A stretch of 32,000 nucleotides of DNA from the NCBI GenBank assembly GCA_963704755.1, contig OY969938.1:4110001-4142000 (forward strand). Direction: 5' to 3'. The notes under the pieces were generated by a model. That model saw nothing but the letters and a program-made list of their open reading frames with translations, searched no databases and was not told the DNA's origin. A program made the position numbers and the translations under genes. The DNA is from an uncultured Chloroflexia bacterium. GTDB taxonomy: Bacteria > Chloroflexota > Anaerolineae > Anaerolineales > Anaerolineaceae. Of the stretch, positions 3,385 to 30,992 are shown one piece after another; within the stretch, counting starts at the first letter, position 1; every line of letters begins with the position of its first letter.

Positions 3385-3436
3385 CTTGACACCTGACACC
3401 TGCCACTTAATCACCGAATCACTGAATTACTCTCCC

Positions 3437-3470: not shown

Positions 3471-3797
3471 AAAGCAATACAAGAAAGACGTTGACGAGGA
3501 CGAGTACGCACCATCAGGACGGTACAGAGAGCAGGAACCGGTGAGAACCTGCCCGAACAGTGATGCGGAATGGACCTCTGAGTCGCAGGGTGAACACTTT
3601 GTAAGTAACCCGAGCCGGAGTTGCCACCGTTATCAAGGTAAAGGGTATCGTCAAGGTTGATTTGACCGTACTCGAAAAGAGTGAGGCTGGCTTTTTCCCC
3701 TGTGTGCATCACCAGGGGATTTTTTTATAACAGCGGCCTAACCGGGGTGGCACCACGGACCTGAGTTCGTCCCCAAGGACTCAGGTCTTTTTGTTTT
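3471..3797 (+). promoter_or_regulatory. T-box riboswitch leader, tryptophan specifier (UGG)
   Basis: Stem I elements run in canonical order: GA motif tgacgagga, AG bulge cagagagc, distal loop ggtgagaa. The specifier loop is gcggaa-TGG-a, with UGG at 3571-3573 followed by the conserved purine. An F-box-like ccgtta and Stem III (3697-3718) follow. The T-box sequence is aaccggggtggcaccacgg (3739-3757). Its UGGC bulge complements a G73-CCA acceptor end, as expected for bacterial tRNA-Trp. The terminator is ggacctgagt (3756-3765) / actcaggtc (3778-3786) + tttttgtttt. Confidence 0.9.
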
Positions 3798-3814: not shown

Positions 3815-4864
3815 ATGAACCAACCTAACAAGCGTATTTTGGCAGGGCATCGCCCAACCGGACCGCGCCATATCGGCCACCTGGTGGGGACATTGACCAA
3901 TTGGGCCAGGCTGCAGGACGAATACGAATGCTTTTTCCTGGTAGCCGACCTGCACGTGTTGACCACCGACTTCGAGCACCCCGAAGTGGTGCGCCAGAAC
4001 TCGCTCGAAGTTGTGGCCGACTGGCTGGCGGCCGGGATCGATCCGCAGCGCAGTACCCTGGTGCTGCAATCGGCGGTGGCCGAACACAGCCAACTGGCCG
4101 TTCTGTTGAGCATGCTGGTGAGCGAATCGCGCCTGCGCCGGGTGCCCACTTATAAGGAGCAGGTCAACCAGCTCAATTTGCAGCCCTCCTTGGGCCTGTT
4201 GACGTACCCGGTGCTGCAGGCAGCCGACATTTTACTCTACAAAGCCAGCGGTGTGCCGGTCGGCGAAGACCAGCTTCCGCATATCGAGCTTTCCCGTGAA
4301 ATTGCCCGCCGGTTCAACCAGCTCTACGGAGCGACCTTCCCTGAGCCGGAAGCGCTGCTGTCCAAAATGCCGCGCCTGCCGGGCACCGATAACCGCACCA
4401 TGCATTTTTCGTACGGCAACACCATTTTGTTGAAAGATACTCCCGAGGAGACCACCCGCAAGGTGATGGAAATGTACACCGACCCGACCCGCATCCACGC
4501 GGATGACCCCGGTCATGTAGAAAATAACCCGGTCTTCACTTACCTGGAACAATTCGACTCGGATTCCGAGCAAGTCGAGGAATTCAAATCGCGTTACCTG
4601 GCCGGCAAAATCGGTGATGTGGAAATCAAAAAGGTACTGGCCCGCAGCATCAACACTGCCCTGGAACCCATCCGCCAACGGCGGGCGAAGCTAATCAACC
4701 AGCCGGCCTACCTGCGCGATGTGCTTTACCTGGGCAGCCTAAAAGCGCGCCAGATTGCACACGAGACCCTGGACGAAACCCTTACCAAAATGGGGCTGAC
4801 CCTGGGCCTGGCGTTGCAGCCAGAAAATGCGAACCTGGATTACCCCAAAGGCGCATTCTGCTAA
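3815..4864 (+). CDS. trpS: Tryptophan--tRNA ligase (class I aaRS), with a divergent KMSKS position
   Basis: GGAGG RBS at 3804-3808. HIGH motif is PRHIGHLVG. GLLTYPVLQAADILLY and VPVGEDQLPHIELSREIARRFN are TrpRS signatures. A Trp-specific T-box lies upstream. The KMSKS position reads TMHFS (4397-4411). Confidence 0.9.
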   Translation: MNQPNKRILAGHRPTGPRHIGHLVGTLTNWARLQDEYECFFLVADLHVLTTDFEHPEVVRQNSLEVVADWLAAGIDPQRSTLVLQSAVAEHSQLAVLLSMLVSESRLRRVPTYKEQVNQLNLQPSLGLLTYPVLQAADILLYKASGVPVGEDQLPHIELSREIARRFNQLYGATFPEPEALLSKMPRLPGTDNRTMHFSYGNTILLKDTPEETTRKVMEMYTDPTRIHADDPGHVENNPVFTYLEQFDSDSEQVEEFKSRYLAGKIGDVEIKKVLARSINTALEPIRQRRAKLINQPAYLRDVLYLGSLKARQIAHETLDETLTKMGLTLGLALQPENANLDYPKGAFC

Positions 4865-6443: not shown

Positions 6444-6516
6444 GGAGTTAAAGCCCCGGCTAATTTTCGGGTAGCGTAGCTCGGATTTCAAACCCGAGCT
6501 ACGCTTGGTCAGGCAA

Positions 6517-7215
6517 GCCCCTGGCTTTCAAAACTCGGTTTCGGGCTGGCGTTGAAGGGCGGCCTCGGCCGACGGAACGGAGGTGAGACCGGGCCGAACA
6601 ATACGTCTTACTTCTAAATTTTGCCAGTTTGCCTTCTATTAAGAAGAACTTAACGCCTTCCCCCTTTATGGGGGAAGGTTGGGATGGGGGCTAACGCCGG
6701 TCAACCAGGGCTTCATTGGGTTATCGAGGACAGGCCAATCTCCGGCGTAGGTAGTGTGCCTCTACAATAGATGGTTACTTGGCTACCCAAACCGGGTTCT
6801 AAAATTGGTGTTGAAGAGCGGCCTCGGCCGACGGAACGGAGGTGAGACCGGGCCGAACAATACGTCTTACTTCTAAATTTTGCCAGTTTGCCTTCTATTA
6901 AGAAGAACTTAACGCCTTCCCCCTTTATGGGGGAAGGTTGGGATGGGGGCTAACGCCGGCCAACCAGGGCTTTATTGGGTTATCGAGGACAGGCCAATCT
7001 CCGGCGTAGGTAGTGTGCCTCTACAATAGATGGTTACTTGGCTACCCAAACTGGATTCTAAAATTGGCGTTGAAGAGCGGCCTCGGTCTGGAGACCGGGC
7101 CGAACAATAAGTTTTAATTCTGCCGGGTATCGAGTTATCCGCTTTTAGGAGGGGCTTAACGCCTTCCCCCTTTATGGGGGAAGGTTGGGATGAGGGCTAA
7201 CGCCGGTCAACCAGG
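6517..7215. repeat. Tandem direct repeat, 259-nt unit, about 2.6 copies (family A)
   Basis: gttgaag(g/a)gcggcctcgg recurs at 6551, 6810 and 7069, a period of exactly 259. Units 1 and 2 are near-identical; unit 3 is truncated and remodelled. Each unit has the hairpin ccttccccc-tttat-gggggaagg plus a ttgggatggggg tail. The ORF track shows no ORF of 60 aa or more. Confidence 0.9.
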
Positions 7216-15523: not shown

Positions 15524-15565
15524 GCCGTCCGCGGGAAAAGTAGGCCTACTTTTCCCGCGGACGGC
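15524..15565. repeat. Perfect 42-nt palindrome in the ccmE-ccmF spacer
   Basis: gccgtccgcgggaaaagtagg (15524-15544) is the exact reverse complement of cctacttttcccgcggacggc (15545-15565), with no loop. A second, imperfect T-tract hairpin lies at about 15590-15640. Confidence 0.85.
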
Positions 15566-15727: not shown

Positions 15728-16250
15728 CTAACTGTTGGCTGCCTGGTCTGGCAGGGCATCCTGATACTTGGTTGGGCATTTTAGCAAAAGTTCATCTGCA
15801 TGAAAAACGCCGTCCGCACCCAATTTACCGGTCAAGATGGCTTGGGCTTCATTCTTGAGCAAATCAGGCCTTACCCCGTTGTAAACCACTTTCAAACGAG
15901 GTGAAGTAGTGTCGAGGACCGCCTGGTGTAAAACAGTTGCCAGGCCACCCATTTGATCGATTTCTTTATTATCCCCAGGGATATTTGCGATCTCAAACTG
16001 GAGCGTCAGGGTTTGTGGATCGTATTGGATCGTGTCGCCGATCACTGCACCAGAAAACACGCAGGTCCTGACCGGAAACCGAAGTGGATTTATCTTGCAA
16101 CTCTGCTACGGTTAAAAAGTACTGGGCGCTGGCCTTAGCCGATGATGCGATCAGATAGATAATAGCCGCGATAATTAACGCGCCGCCCACGATGAACTTC
16201 CCGCGACCGTGCCGGGCAGGTTTTGCGGTGGTCTCATGCGCCGTTGACAT
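15728..16250 (-). pseudogene. ccmE: Heme chaperone CcmE, split by a 1-nt frameshift; Cys variant of the heme-binding site
   Basis: The N-terminal ORF holds the TM plus YFLTVAELQDKSTSVSGQDLRV. The OB-fold ORF holds SGAVIGDTIQYDP...VVYNGVRPDLLKNEAQAILTGKL...LLKCPTKY. They join cleanly if one base is removed from the A4 run at 16054-16057. Start is the ATG at 16250 behind GGAGGAGG. Confidence 0.8.
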
Positions 16251-16618
16251 ATAACCTCCTCCATGGATCAACTGCCACCAGTAAATAAGGCAGATCAGGC
16301 TTGCTTATTTAGCATACACCGTTGGCCAGGGGGACCCCCTTGCCGTTAGCGGCTTGTACGCCAGCCTTATTAATTCTTTCATGGCTAGATTAATCCGAGA
16401 TTAGATCACCAGAAAATTATGATGAGAAACACAGGCTGAAAATCCCAGGCTTATTGAAGAAGCTCCAGAAATTACCGTGTTTTCCCATCGGGCTAAAACG
16501 TTCCACGACGGACCAGGTTTTTGGTCGTTATGCCAATCGGACGTATTATACCCGATTTACTCCGGCAAGTATGTGCAAAAAGTCACAATGTGCAGGTTGT
16601 CCCTAAAAGAAAGGAAGA

Positions 16619-18553: not shown

Positions 18554-19069
18554 TTAGTTTTCCGCCGGGAGGTGACCGGTCAGGTAATCTTCCAGCAAAG
18601 AAAGCGCTTTATGAGCCGACTGGGCTTTATTGGCGACCCGGTCGCCTTGCCAGGTGAACTGCCAGGCCCAATTTCCGTCCGGTGCGCTCATGCCCAGCCA
18701 GACCAGGCCCACCGGCTTACCGGGCATCCCGCCGCCAGGTCCGGCAATTCCGCTGATCGATAGGGTGATGAGTTGTTCGATCGGGATTTCATTACCGGAG
18801 AAGACCCTCCGGGCGCCAATGGCCATTTCGATTACCGTCTCGCGGCTGACCGCGCCGTAGCGGTCGAGGGTTTCCGGGTGAACGCCCAGGATCATGCGTT
18901 TGGCTTCGTAGGCATAGGCCGTTACTCCGCCCAGGTAATATTCGGATGAGCCGGGCACATTGGTGACCAGGTCGCTGACCAAACCTCCGGTACAAGATTC
19001 GGCTACGGCCAGTTTAAGGCCGCGTTTGAGCAGCAAAGGCCCGATGATTTTTTCGACTGGTTCTCCCAC
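18554..19069 (-). CDS. pncC: CinA C-terminal domain protein (nicotinamide-nucleotide amidohydrolase PncC-like)
   Basis: LAVAESCTGGLVSDLVTNVPGSSEYYLGGVTAYAYEAKRMILGV...SGIAGPGGG is the CinA_C signature. I start at the GTG at 19069 behind AGGAG. The 414-aa track ORF is an unsupported upstream extension overlapping the opposite-strand GH1 gene. Confidence 0.85.
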   Translation of the reverse strand: MGEPVEKIIGPLLLKRGLKLAVAESCTGGLVSDLVTNVPGSSEYYLGGVTAYAYEAKRMILGVHPETLDRYGAVSRETVIEMAIGARRVFSGNEIPIEQLITLSISGIAGPGGGMPGKPVGLVWLGMSAPDGNWAWQFTWQGDRVANKAQSAHKALSLLEDYLTGHLPAEN

Positions 19070-19393
19070 GATAACTCCTGAATGCACTCTGGAATGGTGG
19101 CACGGTATTCGAGCTTCCGCAACAGTTAAATTATAACCGAGTATAATTGGGTCGAAAATTACCGTGGTCCCCCTGCAAATGGCAATCTTGACCCCGGTGT
19201 TGCCAATACAGCCCACCCTGGCAAAAGTCGCCAGGGCCTGAGATGACAAAAATCCTGGCTTCCATCCGGTGAAGATGGAAAAGCCATATACCCCTGCATG
19301 GAGCAGGGTCAGCGGGGACACGAGTTTCATTGCCGTAGGACCATCCATTACGTGCGCCTGGCCCGGGTTGGACCCACGAGGAGAGAAGCTACC

Positions 19394-20722
19394 ATGCCAC
19401 AAGCCACATTCCATTTTCCTGTCGGGTTCCTGTGGGGAACCGCAACCGCCGCACACCAGGTGGAGGGCAGCAACACCAATAACAACTGGGCTGCTTGGGA
19501 GGCCGAACCCGGCCGGATTATCCAGGGCCAAAAGGCCGGCCTGGCCTGTGACTGGTGGGGCGGGCGCTGGAAAGAAGATTTCGACCGGGCCGCCGAGACC
19601 GGCCAGAATGCCCATCGTTTTTCGGTAGAATGGAGCCGCATCCAACCCAAGCCGGATGTGTGGGACGAGGATGCCCTGAATTATTACCGCGAAATGCTGC
19701 GTGGCCTGGCGCACCGCGGGTTGACTCCTATGGTGACCCTGCATCACTTCACCGACCCGCTCTGGCTGGTGGAGCAGGGCGGTTGGGAGAACCCACAAAC
19801 ATCGATTTTATTCGAGAAATATGCCGGCAAGGTGGTCGAGGCGCTCAAAGAATACGTCACTTTGTGGGTAACGATCAATGAGCCCAATGTATATGCCTAC
19901 GGGGGTTATCTCAACGGCGGCTTCCCGCCCGGAAAGAACGACATGGGACTGGCGTTTAACGTCACAGCCAATTTGATCCGCGGCCATGCGGCCGCTTACC
20001 GCACCATCCACGCCCTGCAGCGCGAAGCTCGGGTGGGCATCGCCTTGAACTACCGCAGTTTTGCCCCGGCTCACCCGGCTTTGCCTTTCGACAGTTGGAT
20101 GGCCCGCTTTCTCTTCGACAACTTTAATGGAAGCTTTCTGAATACCCTGGTCAACGGGCGGCTGCGGTTTGCGTTCAAGAGCGAACAAATCCCGGAAGCG
20201 ATCAAGACCCAGGACTTCGTCGGCGTCAATTATTACTCGCGCGACCAGGTCAGCTTCCGGCCGCTGGAACCCCAGGCGCTCTTTCATCACCTCTCCTACC
20301 CGCCGGGATCCGATTTGAGCGATAACGGATTCATCGCGAATGTGCCCCAGGGAATGCACGAAGCGCTCAAATGGGCCAACGGCTTCGGGCTACCGATGCT
20401 GGTGACCGAGAATGGGGTGGAAGACAGCGACGATGACCTGCGCCCGCGCTACACCATCCAACATATCCACCAGATCTGGCGGGCAGTCAATTTCAACTGG
20501 CCGATCAAGGGCTATTTCCACTGGTCACTGGTGGACAATTTCGAATGGGAGCGCGGCTGGACCCAACGTTTTGGTTTGTGGGGCCTGGATACCGAAACGC
20601 AGGCGCGCATTCGCCGCACCAGTGTGGACGTGTACGCCGCGATTTGCCGCGAAAACGGTATCGCTTCCGAGATGGTCCAGCGCTATACGCCCGAGATTTT
20701 TAGTAAATTATTTCCGGAGTAA
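19394..20722 (+). CDS. Glycoside hydrolase family 1 beta-glucosidase
   Basis: FLWGTATAAHQVEG, TLHHFTDPLW, WVTINEP (acid/base Glu) and LVTENG (nucleophile Glu). I chose the ATG at 19394 behind GAGGAGAG over the track start at 19298. Confidence 0.9.
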   Translation: MPQATFHFPVGFLWGTATAAHQVEGSNTNNNWAAWEAEPGRIIQGQKAGLACDWWGGRWKEDFDRAAETGQNAHRFSVEWSRIQPKPDVWDEDALNYYREMLRGLAHRGLTPMVTLHHFTDPLWLVEQGGWENPQTSILFEKYAGKVVEALKEYVTLWVTINEPNVYAYGGYLNGGFPPGKNDMGLAFNVTANLIRGHAAAYRTIHALQREARVGIALNYRSFAPAHPALPFDSWMARFLFDNFNGSFLNTLVNGRLRFAFKSEQIPEAIKTQDFVGVNYYSRDQVSFRPLEPQALFHHLSYPPGSDLSDNGFIANVPQGMHEALKWANGFGLPMLVTENGVEDSDDDLRPRYTIQHIHQIWRAVNFNWPIKGYFHWSLVDNFEWERGWTQRFGLWGLDTETQARIRRTSVDVYAAICRENGIASEMVQRYTPEIFSKLFPE

Positions 20723-21302: not shown

Positions 21303-21359
21303 GGAGAGTGTTTTTGTTGTTTTTCGTGCTTCACGCGAAAAACAACAAAAACACTCTCC
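21303..21359. terminator. Long T/A-tract hairpin between convergent genes (bidirectional terminator candidate)
   Basis: Arms ggagagtgtttttgttgtttttcg / cgaaaaacaacaaaaacactctcc (24 bp) flank a short loop. A second hairpin cgaacagttgaa / ttcaactgttcg (21405-21433) overlaps the stop of the 825-aa gene. Confidence 0.6.
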
Positions 21360-23989: not shown

Positions 23990-24875
23990 CGAGTTGCGAT
24001 TTATCACTTCGTAGGGCATCCGTAGGGTGGGTGGAGGGCTCCTTGAGGTTGCAGTGGAATCACCGGGTGTTTGATATCCTGAATTCGTGCCCGCAACCCA
24101 CCATTCGATCAAGTTTCTACTTGTCGGGATGGTTGGTTGCGGGCAGCTTGTAGGTTGGGTTGCGGGCTCAAGCAGAATGCCGGCGATTTGTTGGATTGTG
24201 TAACATCCCAGGCTCTGCCCGTAACCCAACATTGTGCCTGGGTATTGCCTGTGTTCGGGTGCGGGCAGGGTCTGGGTGGGTTATATGTTTTGCCTAAAAA
24301 CCAATGTTGCGATAGAGCCCGCAACCCAACCTACGAAAGGTCCGAGCTAAAAGCTCATGGCTAACGGCTAACAGCTTCTTTCCTACCGGTGGGTTACGGG
24401 CAAGGCCCGGATCACGACGCCATCCGGTGAATCGCCGGTAGTATATTCGAGCCCTGCACCCACCCACCATATATTGCGAGCTAAAAGATAACGGCTCATC
24501 ACCTGCCGGTGGGTGCAGGGCAAGGCCTGGATGGGGATACCAACCGGTGAATCGCCGGCAGTATATTCGAGCCCTGCACCCACCCACCATATATTACGAG
24601 CTAAAAGCTAATGGCTAACGGCTATTCACCTGCCGGTGGGTTACGGGCAAGGCCTGGATCACCACGCCATCCGGTGAATAGCCGGCAGTATATTCGAGCC
24701 CTGCACCCACCCACCATATATTGCGAGCTAAAAGCTAACGGCTCATCGTCTTCCGGTGGGTTACGGGCGAGGCCTGGATGGGGATACCAACCGGTGATCC
24801 GCCGGTGTTATTTTCGAGCCCTGCACCCACCCTACATTTACGCGAGCTAAAAGCTAAAAGCTAATCGCTAACGGC
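23990..24875. repeat. Array of alternating inverted 14-mers; 120/127-nt monomers forming an about 245-nt higher-order tandem unit (family B)
   Basis: ggtgggt(tac/gca)gggc occurs at 24388, 24508, 24635 and 24755. gccctgcacccacc occurs at 24451, 24571, 24698 and 24818. Loop variants alternate a-b-a-b. Diverged relatives lie in both orientations at 24089-24330. Confidence 0.9.
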
Positions 24876-24877
24876 TC

Positions 24878-25612
24878 TTAATGCAACACCTTGCTCAAAA
24901 AGGCCTTGGTGCGTTCCTGGCTGGGGTGGGAGAATAAAACTTCCGGCGTGGCTTCTTCGATAATTTGCCCGCCATCCATCAGGATGGCCCGGTGGGCGGT
25001 GGCACGGGCAAAGCCCATCTCGTGCGAGACGACCACCATGGTCATGCCTTCCTGAGCCAGGGCCAGCATCACGTCCAGCACTTCCTGGATCATTTCGGGA
25101 TCCAAGGCGCTGGTGGGCTCGTCGAACAGCATGATTTTGGGGTTCATTGCCAGGGCGCGGGCGATAGCCACACGCTGCTGCTGTCCGCCGGAGAGTTGAG
25201 CGGGGAAGGCATCGGCTTTATCGGGAATGCCTACCTTGGCGAGCAATTCTCGTCCGATCTTGACCGACTCGTCTTTGGAGCGTTTGCGCACGATGCGTTG
25301 GGCCAGCAGGACATTGTTCAGCACACTCAGGTGCGGGAACAAGTTGAACTGTTGGAAAACCATGCCGACTTCGGTACGCACGGCGTTGATGTTCTCGGCG
25401 CTGTCGAGGGGAATGCCGTCCACGATGATCTTGCCCGCGTCGAATTCCTCCAGGCGGTTGATGCAGCGCAACAGGGTCGATTTTCCCGAGCCGGACGGCC
25501 CGATAATCACCACCACTTCGCCTTTGCTCACGTCCAGGCTGACCCCTTGCAGGGCGTGTACATCCCCAAAGTGCTTGTGGATATTTTCAATATGGATGAT
25601 CGGTTCGGCCAT
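24878..25612 (-). CDS. Polar amino-acid ABC transporter ATP-binding protein
   Basis: Walker [10 protein letters not shown], signature [15 protein letters not shown], Walker [12 protein letters not shown]. GlnQ/HisP-like length and sequence. Confidence 0.9.
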
Positions 25613-25615
25613 GGC

Positions 25616-26428
25616 TTATTTCTCCAGACGGGTCCTGCGTTCGAGGTAGTTGATCAGGCGCGAGGCCAGCAAAGTCATGATCAGGTAAAGCAGGGAGACC
25701 ATGATCCAGGGTTGGATGGAGATGAAGTTGGCGGCCATAAATTCGCGGCCTCGCCGGACCATGTCGGATACCGAGACCACACTGACCAGGGAGGTATCCT
25801 TCAGCAGGGTGATGAATTCGTTGCCGACCGGGGGCAGGATCACCCGCACGGCCTGGGGCAGGATGACGTAGCGCATGGACTGGAAGTAATTCATCCCCAG
25901 GCTGCGAGCGGCTTCCATCTGGCCCTTGTGAATGCTTTGGATGCCGGCCCGGTAGACCTCGCTCATGTAAGCGGCGTAGCAGATGGTCAGGCCCATAATG
26001 GCCATCACATTGGGGTTGGCTTTGTAGCCGGTCAAAGCCGGGCTGTGAAGTGAGGTACCCAGTTGGATAAGAATGGATGGAAAAGCAAAATACCAGAAAA
26101 ATAGCTGTACCAATACCGGGATACCACGGATCACATCGACGTAAACGGTCATGAGGCCGCTAAGCAGTTTTAACCTGGACATGCGCGCCAAAGCCACCAG
26201 CAGGCCGATAACGAGCACCAGGGCGAACGAAATCAGCGTCATGGTGATGGTCACGACCACGCCATCGCTGACAAAGACCAGGACGCGTTTGTACGGGTCG
26301 GGCTGGCCGAAGACCAGCAGTAAGATCAGGGCAACTACGGCCGCCACCAGCAGCCAACCGTTATCCCAGGTCGTTTTTCGGGAAGGCTTGGTGTTGCTCG
26401 GTGTGGTTGGGAGGGCGTTCGATTGCAT
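25616..26428 (-). CDS. Amino-acid ABC transporter permease (HisM/GlnP family)
   Basis: Multi-TM protein with the EAA-like loop MEAARSLGMNYFQSMRYVILPQA. GGAGGA RBS. Its stop is 3 nt from the ATPase start. Confidence 0.9.
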   Translation of the reverse strand: MQSNALPTTPSNTKPSRKTTWDNGWLLVAAVVALILLLVFGQPDPYKRVLVFVSDGVVVTITMTLISFALVLVIGLLVALARMSRLKLLSGLMTVYVDVIRGIPVLVQLFFWYFAFPSILIQLGTSLHSPALTGYKANPNVMAIMGLTICYAAYMSEVYRAGIQSIHKGQMEAARSLGMNYFQSMRYVILPQAVRVILPPVGNEFITLLKDTSLVSVVSVSDMVRRGREFMAANFISIQPWIMVSLLYLIMTLLASRLINYLERRTRLEK

Positions 26429-26675
26429 ATTTTCCTCCGGGACAAAAAAATATGGCTCTTTCGTTTCTGGCGGGTGGTCCTTCCAGGTTGGGAGGTGTGG
26501 ATGGGTTTCGCCTGCCCACGCATCCCAAATCCGGGTATTTTCCCGTCTAAAACGGGAGAGCCAATAATATCAAGCTGGTGGTACGAAAGGGCGCACTAAA
26601 AAGCTGTCAGGTTTTTGTGGTTGGAAATGGGCTTCGCCCATTTCCAACCACAAATTAACAAACTCTGAGTACTCC

Positions 26676-26709
26676 TTACAAAAGCAGGGGCGCGACCAGG
26701 CGCCCCTGC
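26676..26709 (-). terminator. Intrinsic terminator/attenuator after the substrate-binding protein gene
   Basis: On the minus strand GCAGGGGCG-cctggtcg-CGCCCCTGC is followed by TTTTGT. A second 19-bp hairpin lies at 26614-26654. They sit between the SBP and permease genes. Confidence 0.6.
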
Positions 26710-26766
26710 TTCTATGTACTAGGAAAAGAAAAAGTCAGTCGAGTGTATGGCCATCAATATGTGCGA

Positions 26767-27690
26767 CTATTGGTTCGCCGCCAGCCATTTTTGCTGCAAA
26801 GCGTCGATCGTGCCGTCGTCTTTGAGTTCTTTCAAGGCCGCATTGATCGGATCTACCAGGTCGGAACGGTTGTTGCAAATGGCAATGCCGTACAATTCGT
26901 TGGTGAAAGGTTGGCCGGCCGCGACCATTTTCTCGGGGTTCTTGTCGACAAAACCCATGGCGGTGGGGTAATCGGCGATGACCGCGTCCACCTGCCCATT
27001 GGCCAGGTCGAGGAAGGCCAGGTCAACGGTGTCGTAGGGTTTGTAATTAACGTTGGGGATCTTCTTGGCTTCGATCTCACCGGTGGTGCCCAATTGGGCC
27101 GCTACCGTCTTGCCCGCCAGGTCATCTACCGAATTGATGCCTGAGCCGGGAGTGGTGATCACGATCTGTCCGGCGCTCATGTAGGGGTCGGAGAAGAGCA
27201 TTTTTTGTTTGCGCTCGTCGGTGATGGTGATGGCGGAAATGCCGGCGTCGAACTGGCAGGCGGCCAGGCCGGTTTCGAGCGAATCGAAGATGATGTTCGT
27301 CCACTCTATCGTAAAGCCTTCTTTTGCGGCGATGTCGTTCATCAGGTCGATGTCGAAGCCGATCAGGTCTTTGCTGGTTTCATCCACCATCTCGAAGGGC
27401 GGCCAGGTGGCGTCGGTGCCGACCCGGACAGTGGTGCCGGCCAGGGATGAAGCGCCGGCCGGGTAAGCGCTACCCGCCGGGGCTGCGCTGGTAGCGGCGG
27501 CTTCACTCGTTGTGGGTGCTTCAGTGGCAGCCGGGTAGGCGTTGCTTGCCGGCGCTGTGGTCGATGTGCTTTCAGCAGGGTATCCGGTGCTGGGACCGGA
27601 GGCCGTAGGCGTTGCTGCGGGCGCACAGGCGGCCAGCACCAGCGTCAGCAGCGTAAATACAGATACAAGAATGAGTGTCAGGCGTTTCAC
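26767..27690 (-). CDS. Amino-acid ABC transporter substrate-binding lipoprotein (SBP family 3) with a long Ala/Thr/Ser/AYP linker
   Basis: The mature domain has VGTDATWPPFE, GFDIDLMNDIA and DAVIADYP motifs. I start at the GTG at 27690 (GGAGGA plus 5-nt spacer), giving MKRLTLILVSVFTLLTLVLAAC with lipobox LAAC. The track extension to 27870 lacks support. Confidence 0.85.
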   Translation of the reverse strand: MKRLTLILVSVFTLLTLVLAACAPAATPTASGPSTGYPAESTSTTAPASNAYPAATEAPTTSEAAATSAAPAGSAYPAGASSLAGTTVRVGTDATWPPFEMVDETSKDLIGFDIDLMNDIAAKEGFTIEWTNIIFDSLETGLAACQFDAGISAITITDERKQKMLFSDPYMSAGQIVITTPGSGINSVDDLAGKTVAAQLGTTGEIEAKKIPNVNYKPYDTVDLAFLDLANGQVDAVIADYPTAMGFVDKNPEKMVAAGQPFTNELYGIAICNNRSDLVDPINAALKELKDDGTIDALQQKWLAANQ

Positions 27691-28079
27691 GAGTTTCCTC
27701 CAAAAAGGCTTGTAGAACTGGATTTCATTTGTGATATCAATGGGAAAACCAGGCTCGGGACTTTTAGATCCGGTTTTCAAGATTATACCATTTAAAGAAT
27801 CGGGCCGGTTTACCGATTCGGGTGGGGGTGATGACGTTGGGTTGTGTTGATGTTTATCAAGATCTAGCAACTTAAAGAATCCCCAGCTTCATTAAACAAG
27901 GCGAGAATCGGCGACCGAGGTCGCGGCAACAAATACGCGAAGCCGCCGGCGAGCAGGTTTGGAATGGGAGGAGGTATTAGCTCCAGCCGTTTCCCCCGTT
28001 ACGCCAGGTGACGGAAAAATGGTGTATGGTAACCGGGTAGGCGCAAATTCCCAGCTTCGAAAGCCGGGCTACTACGAGG

Positions 28080-28894
28080 GAGCCCCACGAAAGTGGGGCT
28101 TGGTGTACCTGTAGCAGTGACCTCGGTCGCCAACGCGCAGACCCACCCGGGCACCCGGAACCAGGGAGCCCATCCTGGCCGGCGCAAAGAATCCCCCCTT
28201 GGCCCCCTTTGCTGAGGCTGTGAAGAATCTCCTGGCCTGCTTTAGCAGCTATGGGCGTTCGGGCTCCCAAGAATTTGTCGCGTATCCTGAAATCTTCACA
28301 GCCTCCAAGGGGGGAAAGTCCTGGGTTGCACAAGGTGCAGGCAATATTCAATTAGGTGCAACCCGAATTGAGCCCCACGAAGGTGGGGCTTTGTGTACCT
28401 GGTGCAGCGACTTCAATCGCCAACGCGCAGGCCTACCCGGGCACCCGGAACCAGGGAGCCCATTCTGGCCGGCGCAAAAATCCCCCCTGGTCCCCCCTTG
28501 CTGAGGCTGTGAAGAATCTCCTGGCCTGCTTTAGTCGCTATGGGGGTTCGGGCTCAAAAAATCTGTCGCGTATCCTGAAATCTTCACAGCCTCCAAGGGG
28601 GGAAAGTCCTGGGTTGCACAAGGTGCAGGCAATATTCAATTAGGTGCAACCCGAATTGAGTCCCACGAAGGTGGGGTTTTGTGTACCTGGTGCAGTGACC
28701 TCGGTCGCCAACGCGCAGATCCACCCGGGCACCCGGAACCAGTGAGCCCATTCTGGCCGGCGCAAAGAATCCCCCCTGGTCCCCCCTTGCTGAGGCTGTG
28801 AAGAATCTCCTGGCCTGCTTTGGTAGCTATGGGGGTTCGGGCTCAAAAGAATCTGTCGTATATCCTGAAATCTTCACAGCCTCCAAGGGGGGAA
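28080..28894. repeat. Tandem direct repeat, 288-290-nt unit, about 2.8 copies (family C), with nested inverted repeats
   Basis: gag(c/t)cccacgaa starts at 28080, 28370 and 28658. Each unit has the hairpin agccccac-gaag-gtggggct and the long-range helix gaggctgtgaaga / tcttcacagcctc (e.g. 28504-28516 / 28581-28593) extended by C-run/G-run pairing. Each unit also has the stem gggttgcac / gtgcaaccc. Indels between copies break every ORF. Confidence 0.9.
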
Positions 28895-29011
28895 TAGATT
28901 GCCAATTCTTGCCCCCTTGCTAAAGAGGGGGTTCATGAATTGGCTTGGATATTCGCGCAGGCCCATCCAGGCATCCGACTTTGAAAGCCGGGCTACGGTA
29001 GGTACGGATAT

Positions 29012-30874
29012 TTATTCGAGTTGGCTGCGCAAAGACAGGGCTACCTCTTCGGTGATGCCTTTGATGCTCATCAGGTCTTCCACACTGGCATCGCGAATGG
29101 CGTCGATGCTGCCGAATTTAATCAGCAGGGCCTTGCGGCGGGCCGGGCCGATCCCGGGGACGGCGTCCAGGCGGGAGGCCAGGCCGGCTTTGCCGCGCCG
29201 GTTGCGGTGGGCGGTGATGCCAAAGCGGTGCGCCTCGTCGCGGATGCGCTGGACCAGGTAAAGCCCTTGGGAGTGGCGCGGGAGCACGATCGAATCGCTC
29301 TTGCCGGGCAGAAATAGCTCTTCCTGTTGTTTGGCCAGGCCGGTCACCGGTACCTCTTCGAACAGCCCGAACTCCTTGAGCACCTTCTCGGCCCGCCCCA
29401 GTTGGCCCTTGCCGCCATCGACGATCAGCAGATCGGGCAAAACCGCGAAGGACGGGTCCAGTTTGGCGCCCGGACCGCGCTGCTCCTGGGCGGCCAGGTA
29501 GCGCTTGAAGCGCCGGGTAAGCACCTCTTCCATGCTGGCGAAATCGTCCGGCCCCTCTACCGATTGGATGTTAAAGCGCCGGTAGAGCGATTTGCGCGAG
29601 ACGCCTTGCTCGAAGACCACCATGCTGCCGACCGAGTAGGTGCCCTGGGTGTTGGAGATATCGTAGCATTCGATCCGGTTGGGCGGTTCGGGCAGGTTGA
29701 GGGCCGCCTGGAGTTCGGCCAGGGCTTCGCTCTGGTGGTTGGTATCGTTTTCCCATTGGGTTTTCAGCGAGCGCAAGGTTTCCACGGCGTTCTCGGTGGC
29801 CATCTGGACCAGATCCTGGGGCGTCCCTTCGTGGGGTACGATCAGCTCGACTTTCGGCCCGCCCCGGCTGGCCCGCAGCCATTGCTGGATAATGTTGGCC
29901 TCCTCGACTTCCTGGGGCAACAACACCTGGTTGGGTATGCTGGCAGCCTCGGAATAGAATTGTTTAATGAACTCCTCGATCACCTCAGTGTCAGGCTCGT
30001 CCTGGGCGCCTTCAAGAATGTAATACTCGCGCCCGATCAGCTTGCCGGAACGGATGAAGAAGACTTGCACACAGGCTTCGCCATCGTCGCGGGCCATGGC
30101 GATTACATCCGAATCGATCTGGTCGTCGGAAATGACTTTTTGCTTCTCGACCACCCGTTCGATGGCCTGGATCTGGTCGCGTAGGGCGGCGGCGCGCTCG
30201 AAGCGCAGCTCTTCGGAAGCCTGGGCCATTTCACCCTGCAGGCGCTCGACGATCACACCGGTGCGGCCTTCCAGGAAATCGCACAGGTCCAGGATCATCC
30301 GCCGGTAGGCAGCCTGCTGGATGGCGCCGATGCACGGCCCGGTGCACAACTTGATATCGTAGTACAGGCAGGGGCGCGCGTCCTGGCCGGTGATTTCCCG
30401 GTCGCAGGTCAGGTAGGGAAAGATGTGCCGCAGTACGTCCAGGGTCTGGTGGACGGCCCACACACTCGTGTAGGGGCCAAAATAGCGCGAGCCGTCTTTG
30501 ACCATCTGGCGGGTGACGGTCACTTTGGGGAAGGGGTCGTTCAGGTGGACTTTGATATAGGGGTAACGTTTGTCGTCTTTAAGGCGGATGTTATAACGCG
30601 GGCGATGCTTCTTGATCAGGTTCATTTCCAGGATCAAGGCTTCCAACTCCGAACCGACCACAATCCACTCGAGATCGACGATATGCTCCACCAGTTTACG
30701 GGTCTTGAAATCGCCCTCGTGGTTCGAGTGGAAATAAGAACGCACCCGGTTCTTCAGGTTGATCGCCTTGCCCACGTAGATCACCTGGCCACGGTCGTTC
30801 TTCATAATATAACAGCCGGGTTTATCGGGCAGGGTGCTGAGAATACCTCTAATGTGTTCGCTAATATCAGGCAT
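29012..30874 (-). CDS. uvrC: Excinuclease ABC subunit C
   Basis: N-terminal GIY-YIG (PGCYIMKNDRGQVIYVGKAINLKNRVRSYF), a UVR domain, and a C-terminal RNase-H-like endonuclease plus (HhH)2 (GIGPARRKALLIKFGS). Full length at 620 aa. Confidence 0.95.
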   Translation of the reverse strand: MPDISEHIRGILSTLPDKPGCYIMKNDRGQVIYVGKAINLKNRVRSYFHSNHEGDFKTRKLVEHIVDLEWIVVGSELEALILEMNLIKKHRPRYNIRLKDDKRYPYIKVHLNDPFPKVTVTRQMVKDGSRYFGPYTSVWAVHQTLDVLRHIFPYLTCDREITGQDARPCLYYDIKLCTGPCIGAIQQAAYRRMILDLCDFLEGRTGVIVERLQGEMAQASEELRFERAAALRDQIQAIERVVEKQKVISDDQIDSDVIAMARDDGEACVQVFFIRSGKLIGREYYILEGAQDEPDTEVIEEFIKQFYSEAASIPNQVLLPQEVEEANIIQQWLRASRGGPKVELIVPHEGTPQDLVQMATENAVETLRSLKTQWENDTNHQSEALAELQAALNLPEPPNRIECYDISNTQGTYSVGSMVVFEQGVSRKSLYRRFNIQSVEGPDDFASMEEVLTRRFKRYLAAQEQRGPGAKLDPSFAVLPDLLIVDGGKGQLGRAEKVLKEFGLFEEVPVTGLAKQQEELFLPGKSDSIVLPRHSQGLYLVQRIRDEAHRFGITAHRNRRGKAGLASRLDAVPGIGPARRKALLIKFGSIDAIRDASVEDLMSIKGITEEVALSLRSQLE

Positions 30875-30943: not shown

Positions 30944-30992
30944 TTATGGGGTATTTGGGGGCTTGCTGCGCAAGCCCCCAAATACCCCATAA
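30944..30992. repeat. Perfect 23-bp-arm inverted repeat in the divergent uvrC / oxidoreductase promoter region
   Basis: ttatggggtatttgggggcttgc (30944-30966), loop tgc, gcaagcccccaaataccccataa (30970-30992). Confidence 0.85.

Follow-up and report, generated by a model that had tools for sequence, protein, structure and literature searches.

What occupies the intergenic gap between uvrC and a polar amino-acid ABC transport operon in this Anaerolineae genome: an overlooked gene, a structured RNA, or repetitive DNA? Within the 32,000-nt stretch analyzed here in full (hereafter the window), uvrC (29012–30874, − strand) lies on one side of the gap and the genes for the substrate-binding protein (SBP), permease, and ATPase (24878–27690, − strand) lie on the other, the flanks that the original prediction had named. 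The gap proper spans 27691–29011 (~1.3 kb): the most likely start codon of the SBP gene is the GTG at 27690, which has a GGAGGA ribosome-binding site ahead of it. At its core sits a tandem array that is probably non-coding, lineage-specific repetitive DNA of the REP/BIME/MITE kind and not a gene—a BIME-like mosaic of selfish palindromes, expanded by tandem duplication.

Anatomy of the Array

Tandem Repeats Finder placed the array at 28080–28894 (period 288, 2.8 copies, 92% matches, score 1416), and a direct-repeat search put the copy starts at 28080, 28370, and 28658 with spacings of 290 and 288 nt, reproducing the three units and periods first read from the letters. Mean column identity of the three units is 92% (MAFFT). 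The parts are as follows.

28080–28369, no strand: unit 1, 290 nt, a 237-nt body and a 53-nt tail
28370–28657, no strand: unit 2, 288 nt, a 235-nt body and a 53-nt tail
28658–28894, no strand: unit 3, truncated, a 237-nt body with no tail
28605–28657, identical copy at 28317–28369, none after unit 3: 53-nt tail or linker with hairpin (c), GGGTTGCAC/GTGCAACCC
28371–28390, also 28081–28100 and 28659–28678: hairpin (a), 8-bp G+C-rich stem with GAAG loop, then TTTGTGT on the + strand
28503–28593 (unit 2), 28214–28305 (unit 1), 28792–28883 (unit 3): central 91-nt MITE-like hairpin with arms GAGGCTGTGAAGA/TCTTCACAGCCTC
28491–28603 (unit 2), 28192–28315 (unit 1), 28780–28893 (unit 3): outer palindrome TCCCCCCTTG/CAAGGGGGGA around the MITE-like hairpin

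Unit 3 tracks units 1 and 2 for 237 nt, to 28894, and diverges beyond; it is nearest to unit 2 (15 substitutions and 2 gaps). The bodies of units 1 and 2 differ at 20 sites and by 2 gaps (8.5%), whereas their tails are identical (53/53), a disparity expected by chance in ~1% of cases and examined post hoc. Variable columns make up 2 of 48 in the arms of the long hairpin, 0 of 53 in the tail, and ~14% elsewhere; such uneven conservation within the array could reflect constraint instead of gene conversion. The window holds no further copies of the unit.

The stems originally described proved real, with one limit. Hairpin (a) reads AGCCCCAC/GTGGGGCT at 28081–28100 and 28371–28390, and in unit 3 (28659–28678) two of its pairs have become G–T through two C>T changes. 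Helix (b), GAGGCTGTGAAGA/TCTTCACAGCCTC, is a perfect 13-bp pairing in three of three units, encloses 65–66 nt, and is extended by TCCCCCCTTG/CAAGGGGGGA. Stem (c), which had been assigned to each unit, does pair and encloses 24 nt, but is limited to units 1 and 2, while stem (d) is present as CCGGGCACCCGG.

With head-to-tail direct copies, a constant period, and no array at the orthologous site of relatives, the locus has the makeup of a VNTR-like minisatellite. An assembly artefact is ruled out because the copies differ by 6–8%. Nor is this a CRISPR array: the 237-nt “repeats” are far too long against 24–48 bp, and the two 53-nt “spacers” are identical. By inspection, an integron attC cassette array was likewise rejected (no suitably arranged RYYYAAC/GTTRRRY core sites, no integrase).

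Coding Potential and RNA Structure

Open reading frames of 95–124 aa overlap the array on both strands, as they would if the repeats encoded a repetitive protein or small peptides. The 290- and 288-nt periods, however, shift the frame between units, stops occur in every frame within two units, the array ORFs have no Pfam match, and a six-frame translation of two units matched none of 5.8 billion proteins at E ≤ 1e-3. The protein reading is effectively refuted, and the initial judgments that the region lacks coding potential and that indels break any frame between copies both stand.

Known RNA families are rejected as well. At gathering score, the 4227 Rfam families, which take in T-box, HEARO/omega-RNA-type, and large non-coding RNAs, gave nothing in the array and only a T-box (3482–3777) in the whole window; at E ≤ 10 over 27700–29100, the sole matches were noise: snoR41, at 21.7 bits where the cut-off is 40, and 20 nt of RsmY. 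ARAGORN found no tRNA or tmRNA in the array. The original prediction had matched it to no family, and neither did these scans.

A new RNA is a separate matter. Either the full unit or just the 53-nt tail joined to hairpin (a) could be a small structured + strand RNA gene antisense to the flanking genes, making the array a set of tandem sRNA paralogues that end at hairpin (a). Specifically, unit 2 folds better on the + strand (−131.3 kcal/mol, z = −4.9, 0 of 200 shuffles as good) than on the − strand (−124.0 kcal/mol, z = −3.2); hairpin (a) is G+C-rich and precedes TTTGTGT on the + strand; both of its unit 3 changes leave G–U pairs on that strand and A–C mismatches on the other; and the invariant tail lies directly upstream of it. 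Folds well below shuffles on both strands are nonetheless as expected of DNA palindromes over a one-strand RNA, and the predicted folds of the two strands contain G–U pairs at about the same frequency. Compensatory pairs among the copies number zero on either strand, a count with almost no power given only three copies, ~92% identical, and no diverged homologues. Single changes in predicted pairs break more often than they keep them (10 against 6 on the + strand, 13 against 4 on the − strand). Consensus scans gave no promoter-like or terminator-like signal above chance—no promoter-like site within the units and no terminator-like site at all—and hairpin (a) failed the terminator scan. Rfam, Chloroflexi-1 (RF01698) included, has no match to the array, and species-representative genomes and metagenome contigs yielded no homologue. 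We hold a small-RNA locus to be improbable, and the multi-helix RNA raised as an option at the outset gained no positive support from covariation, signals, or relatives, in which the array is absent.

Genomic Context and Relatives

Three groups of relatives (~82% UvrC identity) keep the gene order of the locus—uvrC, SBP, permease, ATPase, and a ~950-aa protein—without the array. The uvrC–SBP spacer is 220 bp in one set (L006–L009) and contains an extra LPG_synthase_TM gene in another (L025–L027), and unit-like sequence is present in neither. Tandem Repeats Finder found 0 long-period arrays in ~57 kb of syntenic DNA of relatives against 3 in the window. Even the closest relatives sampled share only ~82% UvrC identity, so a missing array in them reveals little about a function in this lineage. 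The array as a decayed LPG_synthase_TM gene (compare L025 and L027) was rejected: tblastn gave noise only and no remnant in the window.

Dispersed copies of the unit in related genomes or metagenomes, the first check suggested for this locus, did not materialize. Whole-unit copies were absent among helix-pattern matches from species-representative genomes and metagenome contigs (a set to which the source genome does not belong), and from plasmids, phages, and viral contigs; only MITE-like hairpin ends matched. In the literature, the helix word turned up only in eukaryotic primer sequences with no relation to the array.

One word in the gap bears on transcription.

27781–27791, − strand: ATGGTATAATC, an extended −10 promoter-like word common to the L006 spacer, with a putative promoter role

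It is the sole intergenic match of at least 11 nt common to the window and the L006 spacer, and is likely the promoter of the ABC operon. Lying between the array and the SBP gene, it would place the array upstream of the likely promoter and outside the operon leader. An ABC operon 5′ leader or riboswitch is thus unlikely: this promoter-like word separates the array from the SBP gene, and relatives are without the array. Situated between the end of uvrC and the likely ABC promoter, the array would be transcribed only by uvrC read-through, on the − strand.

Such a position invites a role in cis, of the sort proposed for REP and BIME elements in enterobacteria: the array might insulate the ABC operon from uvrC read-through, stabilize the 3′ end of uvrC, or serve as a binding site for gyrase or a nucleoid protein. 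It falls exactly between a gene 3′ end and the next promoter-like word, its hairpins are very stable on the − strand as well, and a terminator scan found no canonical intrinsic terminator after uvrC, so that the array hairpins could act as one. REP functions in termination and mRNA stability are summarized elsewhere (PMC3733652). Yet relatives manage with a 220-bp spacer and no array, a single hairpin would suffice where three 288-nt copies are not required, and the copies are diverging at 6–8%; we give a useful role on the − strand little credence. If the array is instead repetitive DNA of the REP/BIME/MITE kind, as we favor, whatever effect it has would come incidentally from its hairpins, which may pause or end read-through or shield the uvrC 3′ end, and a selected function would probably be lacking.

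REP-Like Hairpins at the Array Edges

Related words had been predicted to bracket the array, and they do occur: GAAAGCCGGGCTAC at 28059–28072 and 28983–28996 (17/18 as an 18-mer), and A(A/T)TCCCAGCTTC at ~27880 and ~28044. They belong to a set of spacer pieces.

28050–28072, − strand: REP-like GTAG-headed hairpin R1, GTAGCCCGGCTTTCGAAGCTGGG, 8-bp stem and 3-nt loop, 7 nt from the start of unit 1
28975–28996, − strand: REP-like GTAG-headed hairpin R2, GTAGCCCGGCTTTCAAAGTCGG, same orientation as R1, starting 16 nt past the uvrC end (29012)
27880–27892, no strand: half-site of the REP-like hairpin, AATCCCCAGCTTC, without partner arm, read from the sequence
27910–27944, − strand: inverted degenerate unit fragment, 80% complementary to unit positions 18–52
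28901–28944, no strand: hairpin GCCAATTC...GAATTGGC with inner CCCCCT/AGGGGG stem, directly past truncated unit 3
28954–28977, + strand: weak direct fragment like unit positions 55–78, 83% over 24 nt, alone not significant

The inverted fragment accounts for a word at ~27913 that had been noted as the reverse complement of a unit word, and TTGCCCCCTTG in the 28901–28944 hairpin has a second possible partner in the last arm of unit 3. R1 and R2, 924 bp apart, are both GTAGCCCGGCTTTCRAAG hairpins, and a relative on the + strand (6471–6503) adjoins a second, unrelated tandem array, array A. Matches to the GTAGCCCGGCTTTCRAAG hairpin number 3 in the 32 kb where 0.01 would be expected, and REP-like copies overall 3–4 against 0.01–0.12.

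GTAG is a hallmark of REPs, which form clusters (PMC3733652). Only the flanking hairpins are 20–40-bp imperfect palindromes ending in GTAG; the 288-nt unit has no conserved GTAG-headed hairpin. REPs alternating at regular short spacing, as in a BIME, are not what the units offer, these being 288-nt direct repeats. The original prediction had set the array against a simple REP hairpin, although its own bracketing words are GTAG-headed REP-like hairpins, and for that reason “REP/MITE mosaic” suits the locus better than “single amplified MITE.”

The same tag recurs in array B (24315–24877), which is composed of a second GTAG-tagged palindrome.

Transposase processing of intermediates is a model proposed for REP arrays and BIMEs. 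On this view the DNA is of the same kind, but a REP-associated tyrosine transposase (RAYT) or the transposase of the MITE itself would have built the array in place of general recombination, targeting the GTAG hairpins or hairpin ends and producing head-to-tail copies through circular or hairpin intermediates. The direct orientation of the REP-like hairpins that bracket the array, with another at the array A edge, and the makeup of array B fit such a process, and the count of unrelated arrays, three in 32 kb here and none in relatives, suggests genome-specific activity. The window, however, holds no transposase, Y1/HUH and RAYT included; the units are 288-nt direct repeats and not alternating REPs; and the REP-like hairpins bracket the whole array, not individual units. 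We consider a transposase-built array unlikely.

MITE-Like Ends of the Central Hairpin

Scans with the arms of helix (b) covered species-representative genomes and metagenome contigs with a pattern that demanded identity to 22–24 nt of the array, and returned 5 genome loci and 15 metagenome loci. Among these matches are three subfamilies of hairpin elements (74–99 nt) with common ends AGGCTGTGAAGAAAT, found in Planctomycetota genomes and other metagenome contigs (L001, L002, L004, L010–L019, L022–L024) at distinct loci with unrelated flanks. The elements are bounded by 5-bp direct repeats (CGGAG, CTCCG, CCCAA/CCCAG, CTCAG, CCGAG, CTGAG), with 4–5 of 5 flank bases matching at 11 loci of the family; these varying repeats are evidently target-site duplications. 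At L004 and L023, the flanks of the element are themselves inverted repeats and the duplicated target forms the loop, which marks these as insertions into hairpin loops; members of the family often lie within older hairpins. The array hairpin is similarly nested, within the palindrome TCCCCCCTTG/CAAGGGGGGA.

How close is the array hairpin to this family? In its right arm, GAAATCTTCACAGCCTC, 17 nt agree without exception with the L001 and L004 elements, and its left end matches 14 of 16 family positions with one deletion against the consensus. The 91-nt hairpin thus carries MITE terminal inverted repeats, 22–24 of whose bases were demanded by the search pattern, so that the resemblance is partly built into the search. 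It also has MITE size and fold, being non-coding, under 300 bp, and one long hairpin (91 nt; 113 nt once the outer palindrome is counted). A unit profile run against all fetched loci (nhmmer) hit L004 (E = 3e-4) and L001 (E = 4e-3) in the MITE-like part only. A control scan with hairpin (c) gave six unrelated hairpins with no common extension, and within the window AGGCTGTGAAGAAAT-type ends are confined to the array.

Other features depart from the family. A 5-bp target duplication is absent around the array hairpin in all three copies (TGCTG left, CCAAG right), and its interior has no kinship with any retrieved element. Plasmid searches matched no annotated parent IS of the retrieved MITEs, and a lone family end at 3388–3403 of L002 has neither a partner end nor a nearby transposase. 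The MITE-like character proposed from the start is nevertheless borne out for helix (b), which has the terminal inverted repeat of a hairpin-element family dispersed in other phyla.

Proposed History of the Array

We propose that the array arose in three steps. First, a short mobile palindrome bounded by AGGCTGTGAAGAA...TCTTCACAGCCT would have inserted downstream of uvrC into a pre-existing intergenic palindrome, TCCCCCCTTG/CAAGGGGGGA, at a time when the spacer contained GTAG-headed REP-like hairpins already. A ~290-bp segment comprising the nested hairpin and several smaller palindromes may then have been copied head to tail. Hairpin-rich DNA favors template switching at stalled forks and unequal recombination, and these are the likely mechanisms of copying. 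Finally, the copies would have diverged by 6–8% through drift, while the 53-nt tail was probably homogenized by gene conversion and the last tail lost or replaced.

Known Systems and Implications

REP clusters and BIMEs (bacterial interspersed mosaic elements) of enterobacteria and pseudomonads, associated with RAYT transposases, resemble the array in being intergenic, non-coding, tandem mosaics of imperfect palindromes, typically downstream of genes, and GTAG-headed hairpins occur at this array's edges too (REP definition in PMC3733652). They differ in that BIMEs consist of 20–40-bp REPs, alternating and ~30–100 bp apart, whereas the array is a 288-nt composite in direct orientation, flanked by GTAG hairpins instead of formed by them, with no RAYT in the 32-kb window. 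The AGGCTGTGAAGAAAT MITEs share with the array hairpin their size (74–99 nt, 91 nt here), the terminal inverted repeat, the 17-nt right end (L001, L004), and nesting in an older palindrome (L004, L023), but they are dispersed, whereas the array hairpin, lacking a target duplication and one left-end base and having an unrelated interior, is seen only inside the tandem unit.

BrickBuilt of Porphyromonas gingivalis combines a minisatellite and a MITE (PMC4596501). As in the array, tandem repeats are joined to a MITE within a bacterial element confined to intergenic DNA; there, a 23-nt minisatellite lies inside a MITE with 19 dispersed copies, whereas here a MITE-like hairpin lies inside a 288-nt unit at one known locus. 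IS1397, ISKpn1, and some IS110/IS1111 members insert into REP or hairpin loops. The retrieved MITEs at L004 and L023 likewise sit in loops of pre-existing hairpins and the array hairpin is equally nested, although the 5-bp duplication and AGGCTGTGAAGAAAT ends are no obvious fit to these elements. Copies of Chloroflexi-1 (RF01698) lie consecutively in the genome, and they share with the array side-by-side, hairpin-rich units in a Chloroflexota genome. This RNA is listed in PMC2864571. The array, however, fails to match its covariance model, has a unit several times as long, and shows neither covariation nor promoter or terminator signals.

For annotation, the 1.3-kb “gap” would best be labeled repetitive palindromic DNA, with no missed gene, riboswitch, or new large RNA. 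These data also record REP-like (GTAG) and MITE-like palindromes from Anaerolineae, a group with few descriptions of this kind of element, and the helix scan uncovered a cross-phylum MITE family that enters hairpin loops with a 5-bp duplication.

The window carries three unrelated long-period arrays, with periods of 259, ~125, and 288 nt. Three such intergenic arrays in 32 kb against none in relatives hint at lineage-specific palindrome amplification. A bolder extension, which we regard as very improbable, is that one active genome-wide system in this Anaerolineae lineage amplifies REP/MITE palindromes into tandem arrays of these three periods, each adjoining or made of GTAG-tagged hairpins, and that the 288-nt units are independently transcribed structured RNAs or DNA binding platforms with a cellular role; were that true, a new class of tandem, non-coding elements derived from MITEs would have come to light in bacteria. 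If copy number varies, the arrays would be useful as strain markers.

Array anatomy and genomic setting

The window derives from an Anaerolineae (Chloroflexota) chromosome whose closest other UvrC matches, labelled Bellilinea, Longilinea, Anaerolineaceae or Chloroflexota, are only ~82% identical. Two sets of genes flank the array, and the remaining window genes are housekeeping (TrpRS behind a T-box, a PALP enzyme, ccm genes and others).

24878-27690, - strand: polar amino-acid ABC system (substrate-binding protein, SBP; permease; ATPase)
29012-30874, - strand: uvrC

Tandem Repeats Finder recovered the predicted repeats as a single array spanning 28080-28894, with 2.8 copies at a period of 288 (92% matches; score 1416), and the repeat search returned the same unit starts (28080, 28370 and 28658) and spacings (290 and 288 nt) as the original prediction. 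Mean column identity across the three aligned units is 92%, and the 32-kb window holds no further copies. Two refinements emerged: a full unit comprises a ~237-nt body and a 53-nt tail, and unit 3 ends early, after 237 nt. The tails are identical (53/53) while the bodies differ at 15–20 sites, a pattern spotted post hoc that uniform divergence would produce with ~1% probability. The small indels between units call for caution, as an apparent ccmE frameshift within a T-run indicates that the assembly may contain homopolymer indel errors. Specifically, ccmE (15728-16271, - strand) seemingly occupies two overlapping frames (15993-16271 and 15728-16060) and becomes continuous again once one T is dropped from a TTTT run near 16050; the split is either a true frameshift or a long-read homopolymer error.

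All stems described earlier were found in the sequence:

Hairpin (a): 8 bp with a GAAG loop
Helix (b): 13-bp perfect helix, GAGGCTGTGAAGA/TCTTCACAGCCTC, with 65-66 nt between its arms, lengthened by TCCCCCCTTG/CAAGGGGGGA
Hairpin (c): 9-bp stem, GGGTTGCAC/GTGCAACCC, in units 1 and 2 only
Word (d): CCGGGCACCCGG

The bracketing words proved real too, as did the inverted fragment (27910-27944). This fragment and a weak one at 28954-28977 are decayed pieces of the unit in the array flanks, which suggests repeated turnover at the site.

Gene order (uvrC, SBP, permease, ATPase, ~950-aa protein) is conserved in three groups of relatives. The uvrC–SBP spacer measures 1321 bp here (27691-29011) and holds the array; in one set of relatives (L006-L009) it is 220 bp of unrelated DNA (L006:7864-8083), and in another (L025-L027) it contains an LPG_synthase_TM gene of 315–337 aa on the opposite strand:

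L025:11978-12925: LPG_synthase_TM gene in spacer
L027:11883-12896: LPG_synthase_TM gene in spacer

Spacer content varies among Anaerolineae relatives (LPG_synthase_TM gene, 220 bp, or array). Their loci contain no unit-like sequence, and ~57 kb of their syntenic DNA contains 0 long-period arrays vs. 3 in the window. We rejected the array as a remnant of the relatives' LPG_synthase_TM gene, of which the window bears no trace. The sole intergenic match of ≥11 nt with the L006 spacer, ATGGTATAATC (27781-27791, - strand), is an extended -10-like promoter word, which would leave the array outside the operon leader, with the uvrC 3' end on one side and the probable ABC promoter on the other. Selection of the array in cis, as an insulator or stabiliser, seems to us improbable, and any cellular effect would probably arise incidentally, as read-through from uvrC runs into stable hairpins.

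Coding potential and RNA folding

The array had been called non-coding, and the searches bear this out: ORFs overlapping it have no Pfam match, and six-frame translation of two units matched none of 5.8 billion proteins (E ≤ 1e-3). We regard a protein-coding array as extremely implausible. The Rfam search proposed for it matched the array to no family; at gathering score the whole window yielded a T-box only, and at E ≤ 10 the array region yielded noise only. That T-box leader (3482-3777, + strand; 106 bits, exceeding the gathering score) lies directly 5' of a gene (3815-4864) for a class I tRNA synthetase of the Trp/Tyr type. ARAGORN gave no match, and consensus scans found no terminator-like sites and a single promoter-like site, where 0.9 were expected.

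Unit 2 folds far more stably than its shuffles (z = -4.9 on the + strand, -3.2 on the - strand). RNAalifold on the three bodies returned no compensatory pairs; single changes kept pairs in 6 cases and broke them in 10 on the + strand (4 and 13 on the - strand). With only three copies at 92% identity this covariation test has little power, and such signal as exists does not point to a conserved RNA fold. Tandem sRNA genes on the + strand are doubtful, yet this reading is kept alive at low probability by three features: the body varies least in the arms of its long hairpin (2/48 columns vs. ~14% elsewhere), the tail is invariant, and unit 3 carries two changes in its hairpin (a), both of which yield G-U pairs on the + strand only.

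A MITE-like central hairpin

We scanned species-representative genomes and metagenomes, collections that both exclude the source genome, for the helix (b) arms (in the genomes, as an inverted repeat 50–80 nt apart). Five genome loci (Planctomycetaceae, two contigs of one MAG; Planctomycetota; Phycisphaeraceae; Pseudomonadales) and 15 metagenome loci emerged, and the rest of the 288-nt unit is absent from all of them. Most matches form three subfamilies of 74–99-nt hairpin elements with common ends, AGGCTGTGAAGAAAT, and differing interiors; one subfamily recurs, near-identical, at six separate loci whose flanks are unrelated. At 11 loci 5-bp repeats bound the element, with left and right flanks agreeing at 4–5 of 5 positions, and the pentamers vary by locus (CGGAG, CTCCG, CCCAA/CCCAG, CTCAG, CCGAG, CTGAG; roughly CNNAG/CTNNG). 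Because flanking repeats that are direct, not inverted, result from transposase target-site duplication, the elements are MITEs.

Family members occur at L001, L002, L004, L010-L015, L017-L019 and L022-L024 (e.g., L010:1168-1251, L004:1796-1904), from Planctomycetota genomes as well as other metagenome contigs, in at least three subfamilies. Several copies occupy the loop of an older hairpin. At L004 and L023 the DNA beyond the duplication is an inverted repeat, and excising the element restores a hairpin with the duplicated pentamer as its loop, which shows that the family inserts into hairpin loops. L002:3388-3403 is a lone right end, ATTTTTTCACAGCCTC, with no partner at ≤4 mismatches across the 7.2-kb contig.

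The array's central hairpin (91 nt) shares the length class and ends of this family and is, like its members, nested within an outer palindrome. Its right arm, GAAATCTTCACAGCCTC, is identical in L001 and L004, the similarity spanning ~24 nt, though the resemblance is partly built in, as the scan pattern demanded 22–24 bases. A unit profile search reached L004 (E = 3e-4) and L001 (E = 4e-3). In a control, a hairpin (c) scan of viral contigs gave six hairpins sharing only the required bases, so the method itself does not account for the extensions shared among helix (b) matches. The central hairpin's interior is unrelated to those of the MITEs, and it departs from the family on one defining test, having no 5-bp target duplication around it. 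On balance, it is fairly probable that the hairpin belongs to or descends from this family. Of the two identities first proposed, a MITE-like element gains from these ends; a multi-helix RNA has no positive support.

REP-like surroundings and further arrays

The original prediction set the array apart from simple REP hairpins; the bracketing words are themselves GTAG-tagged REP-like palindromes. On the - strand, the word GAAAGCCGGGCTAC is the head of GTAGCCCGGCTTTC(G/A)AAG, an imperfect palindrome with a 7–8-bp stem and 3-nt loop. This pattern has 3 matches (0.01 expected), and a looser one 4 (0.12 expected):

28050-28072, - strand: REP-like hairpin bracketing the array
28975-28996, - strand: REP-like hairpin bracketing the array, same orientation
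6471-6503: third REP-like hairpin, just before a second tandem array (start 6547)
6523-6538: a relative, just before 6547 (flanking hairpins of the second array: 6471-6503 and 6516-6541)

The second array (6547-7215; 259-nt period, ~2.6 copies, 97–98% identical) is unrelated to the first and lies between convergent PALP-enzyme and ccmC-like genes; each unit bears the hairpin CCTTCCCCC-TTTAT-GGGGGAAGG. A third (24315-24877) has 4–5 copies of ~120–127 nt with a higher-order period of 247 nt. Its building block is a GTAG-tagged palindrome (GTAGG(G/T)TGGGT..GGGCTC) that also occurs in inverted form upstream (24022-24041, 24088-24145, 24150-24169). This third array has the look of a classical BIME-style REP cluster and fills a 977-bp spacer 3' of the ABC ATPase gene (119–320 bp in relatives).

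REPs are GTAG-headed, clustering sequences tied to REP-associated tyrosine transposases, RAYTs (PMC3733652). Amplification of the same DNA by a RAYT-type transposase is an unlikely alternative, if a less remote one than selection in cis; no transposase genes were found in the 32-kb window.

Origin of the array

The explanation we favour, with some confidence, is that the array is selfish palindromic DNA, pieced together as a mosaic specific to this lineage. A MITE-like hairpin would have entered an older palindrome within a REP-bearing spacer; a ~290-bp segment would then have been copied head to tail; and the copies would have drifted 6–8% apart, the tail being partly homogenised and the last tail lost. 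In the way it works, the array compares with REP/BIME clusters and MITE-derived minisatellites. It differs from a strict BIME, in which REPs alternate, in that its units are direct 288-nt repeats. A bacterial combination of MITE and minisatellite is documented in BrickBuilt of P. gingivalis (PMC4596501), although the nesting of the two is opposite in the array.

Three long perfect palindromes also occur in intergenic DNA, at 15524-15565 (21 bp, loopless), 21303-21359 (24 bp, 9-nt loop) and 30944-30992 (23 bp, 3-nt loop; just 5' of the uvrC start), with no sequence kinship to one another or to the arrays. About 500 bp at the start of a well-supported GH1 glycosidase gene (19298-20722, + strand) also fall within the CinA ORF (18554-19798, - strand), and the true CinA start is probably further downstream than that of the mechanically called ORF.
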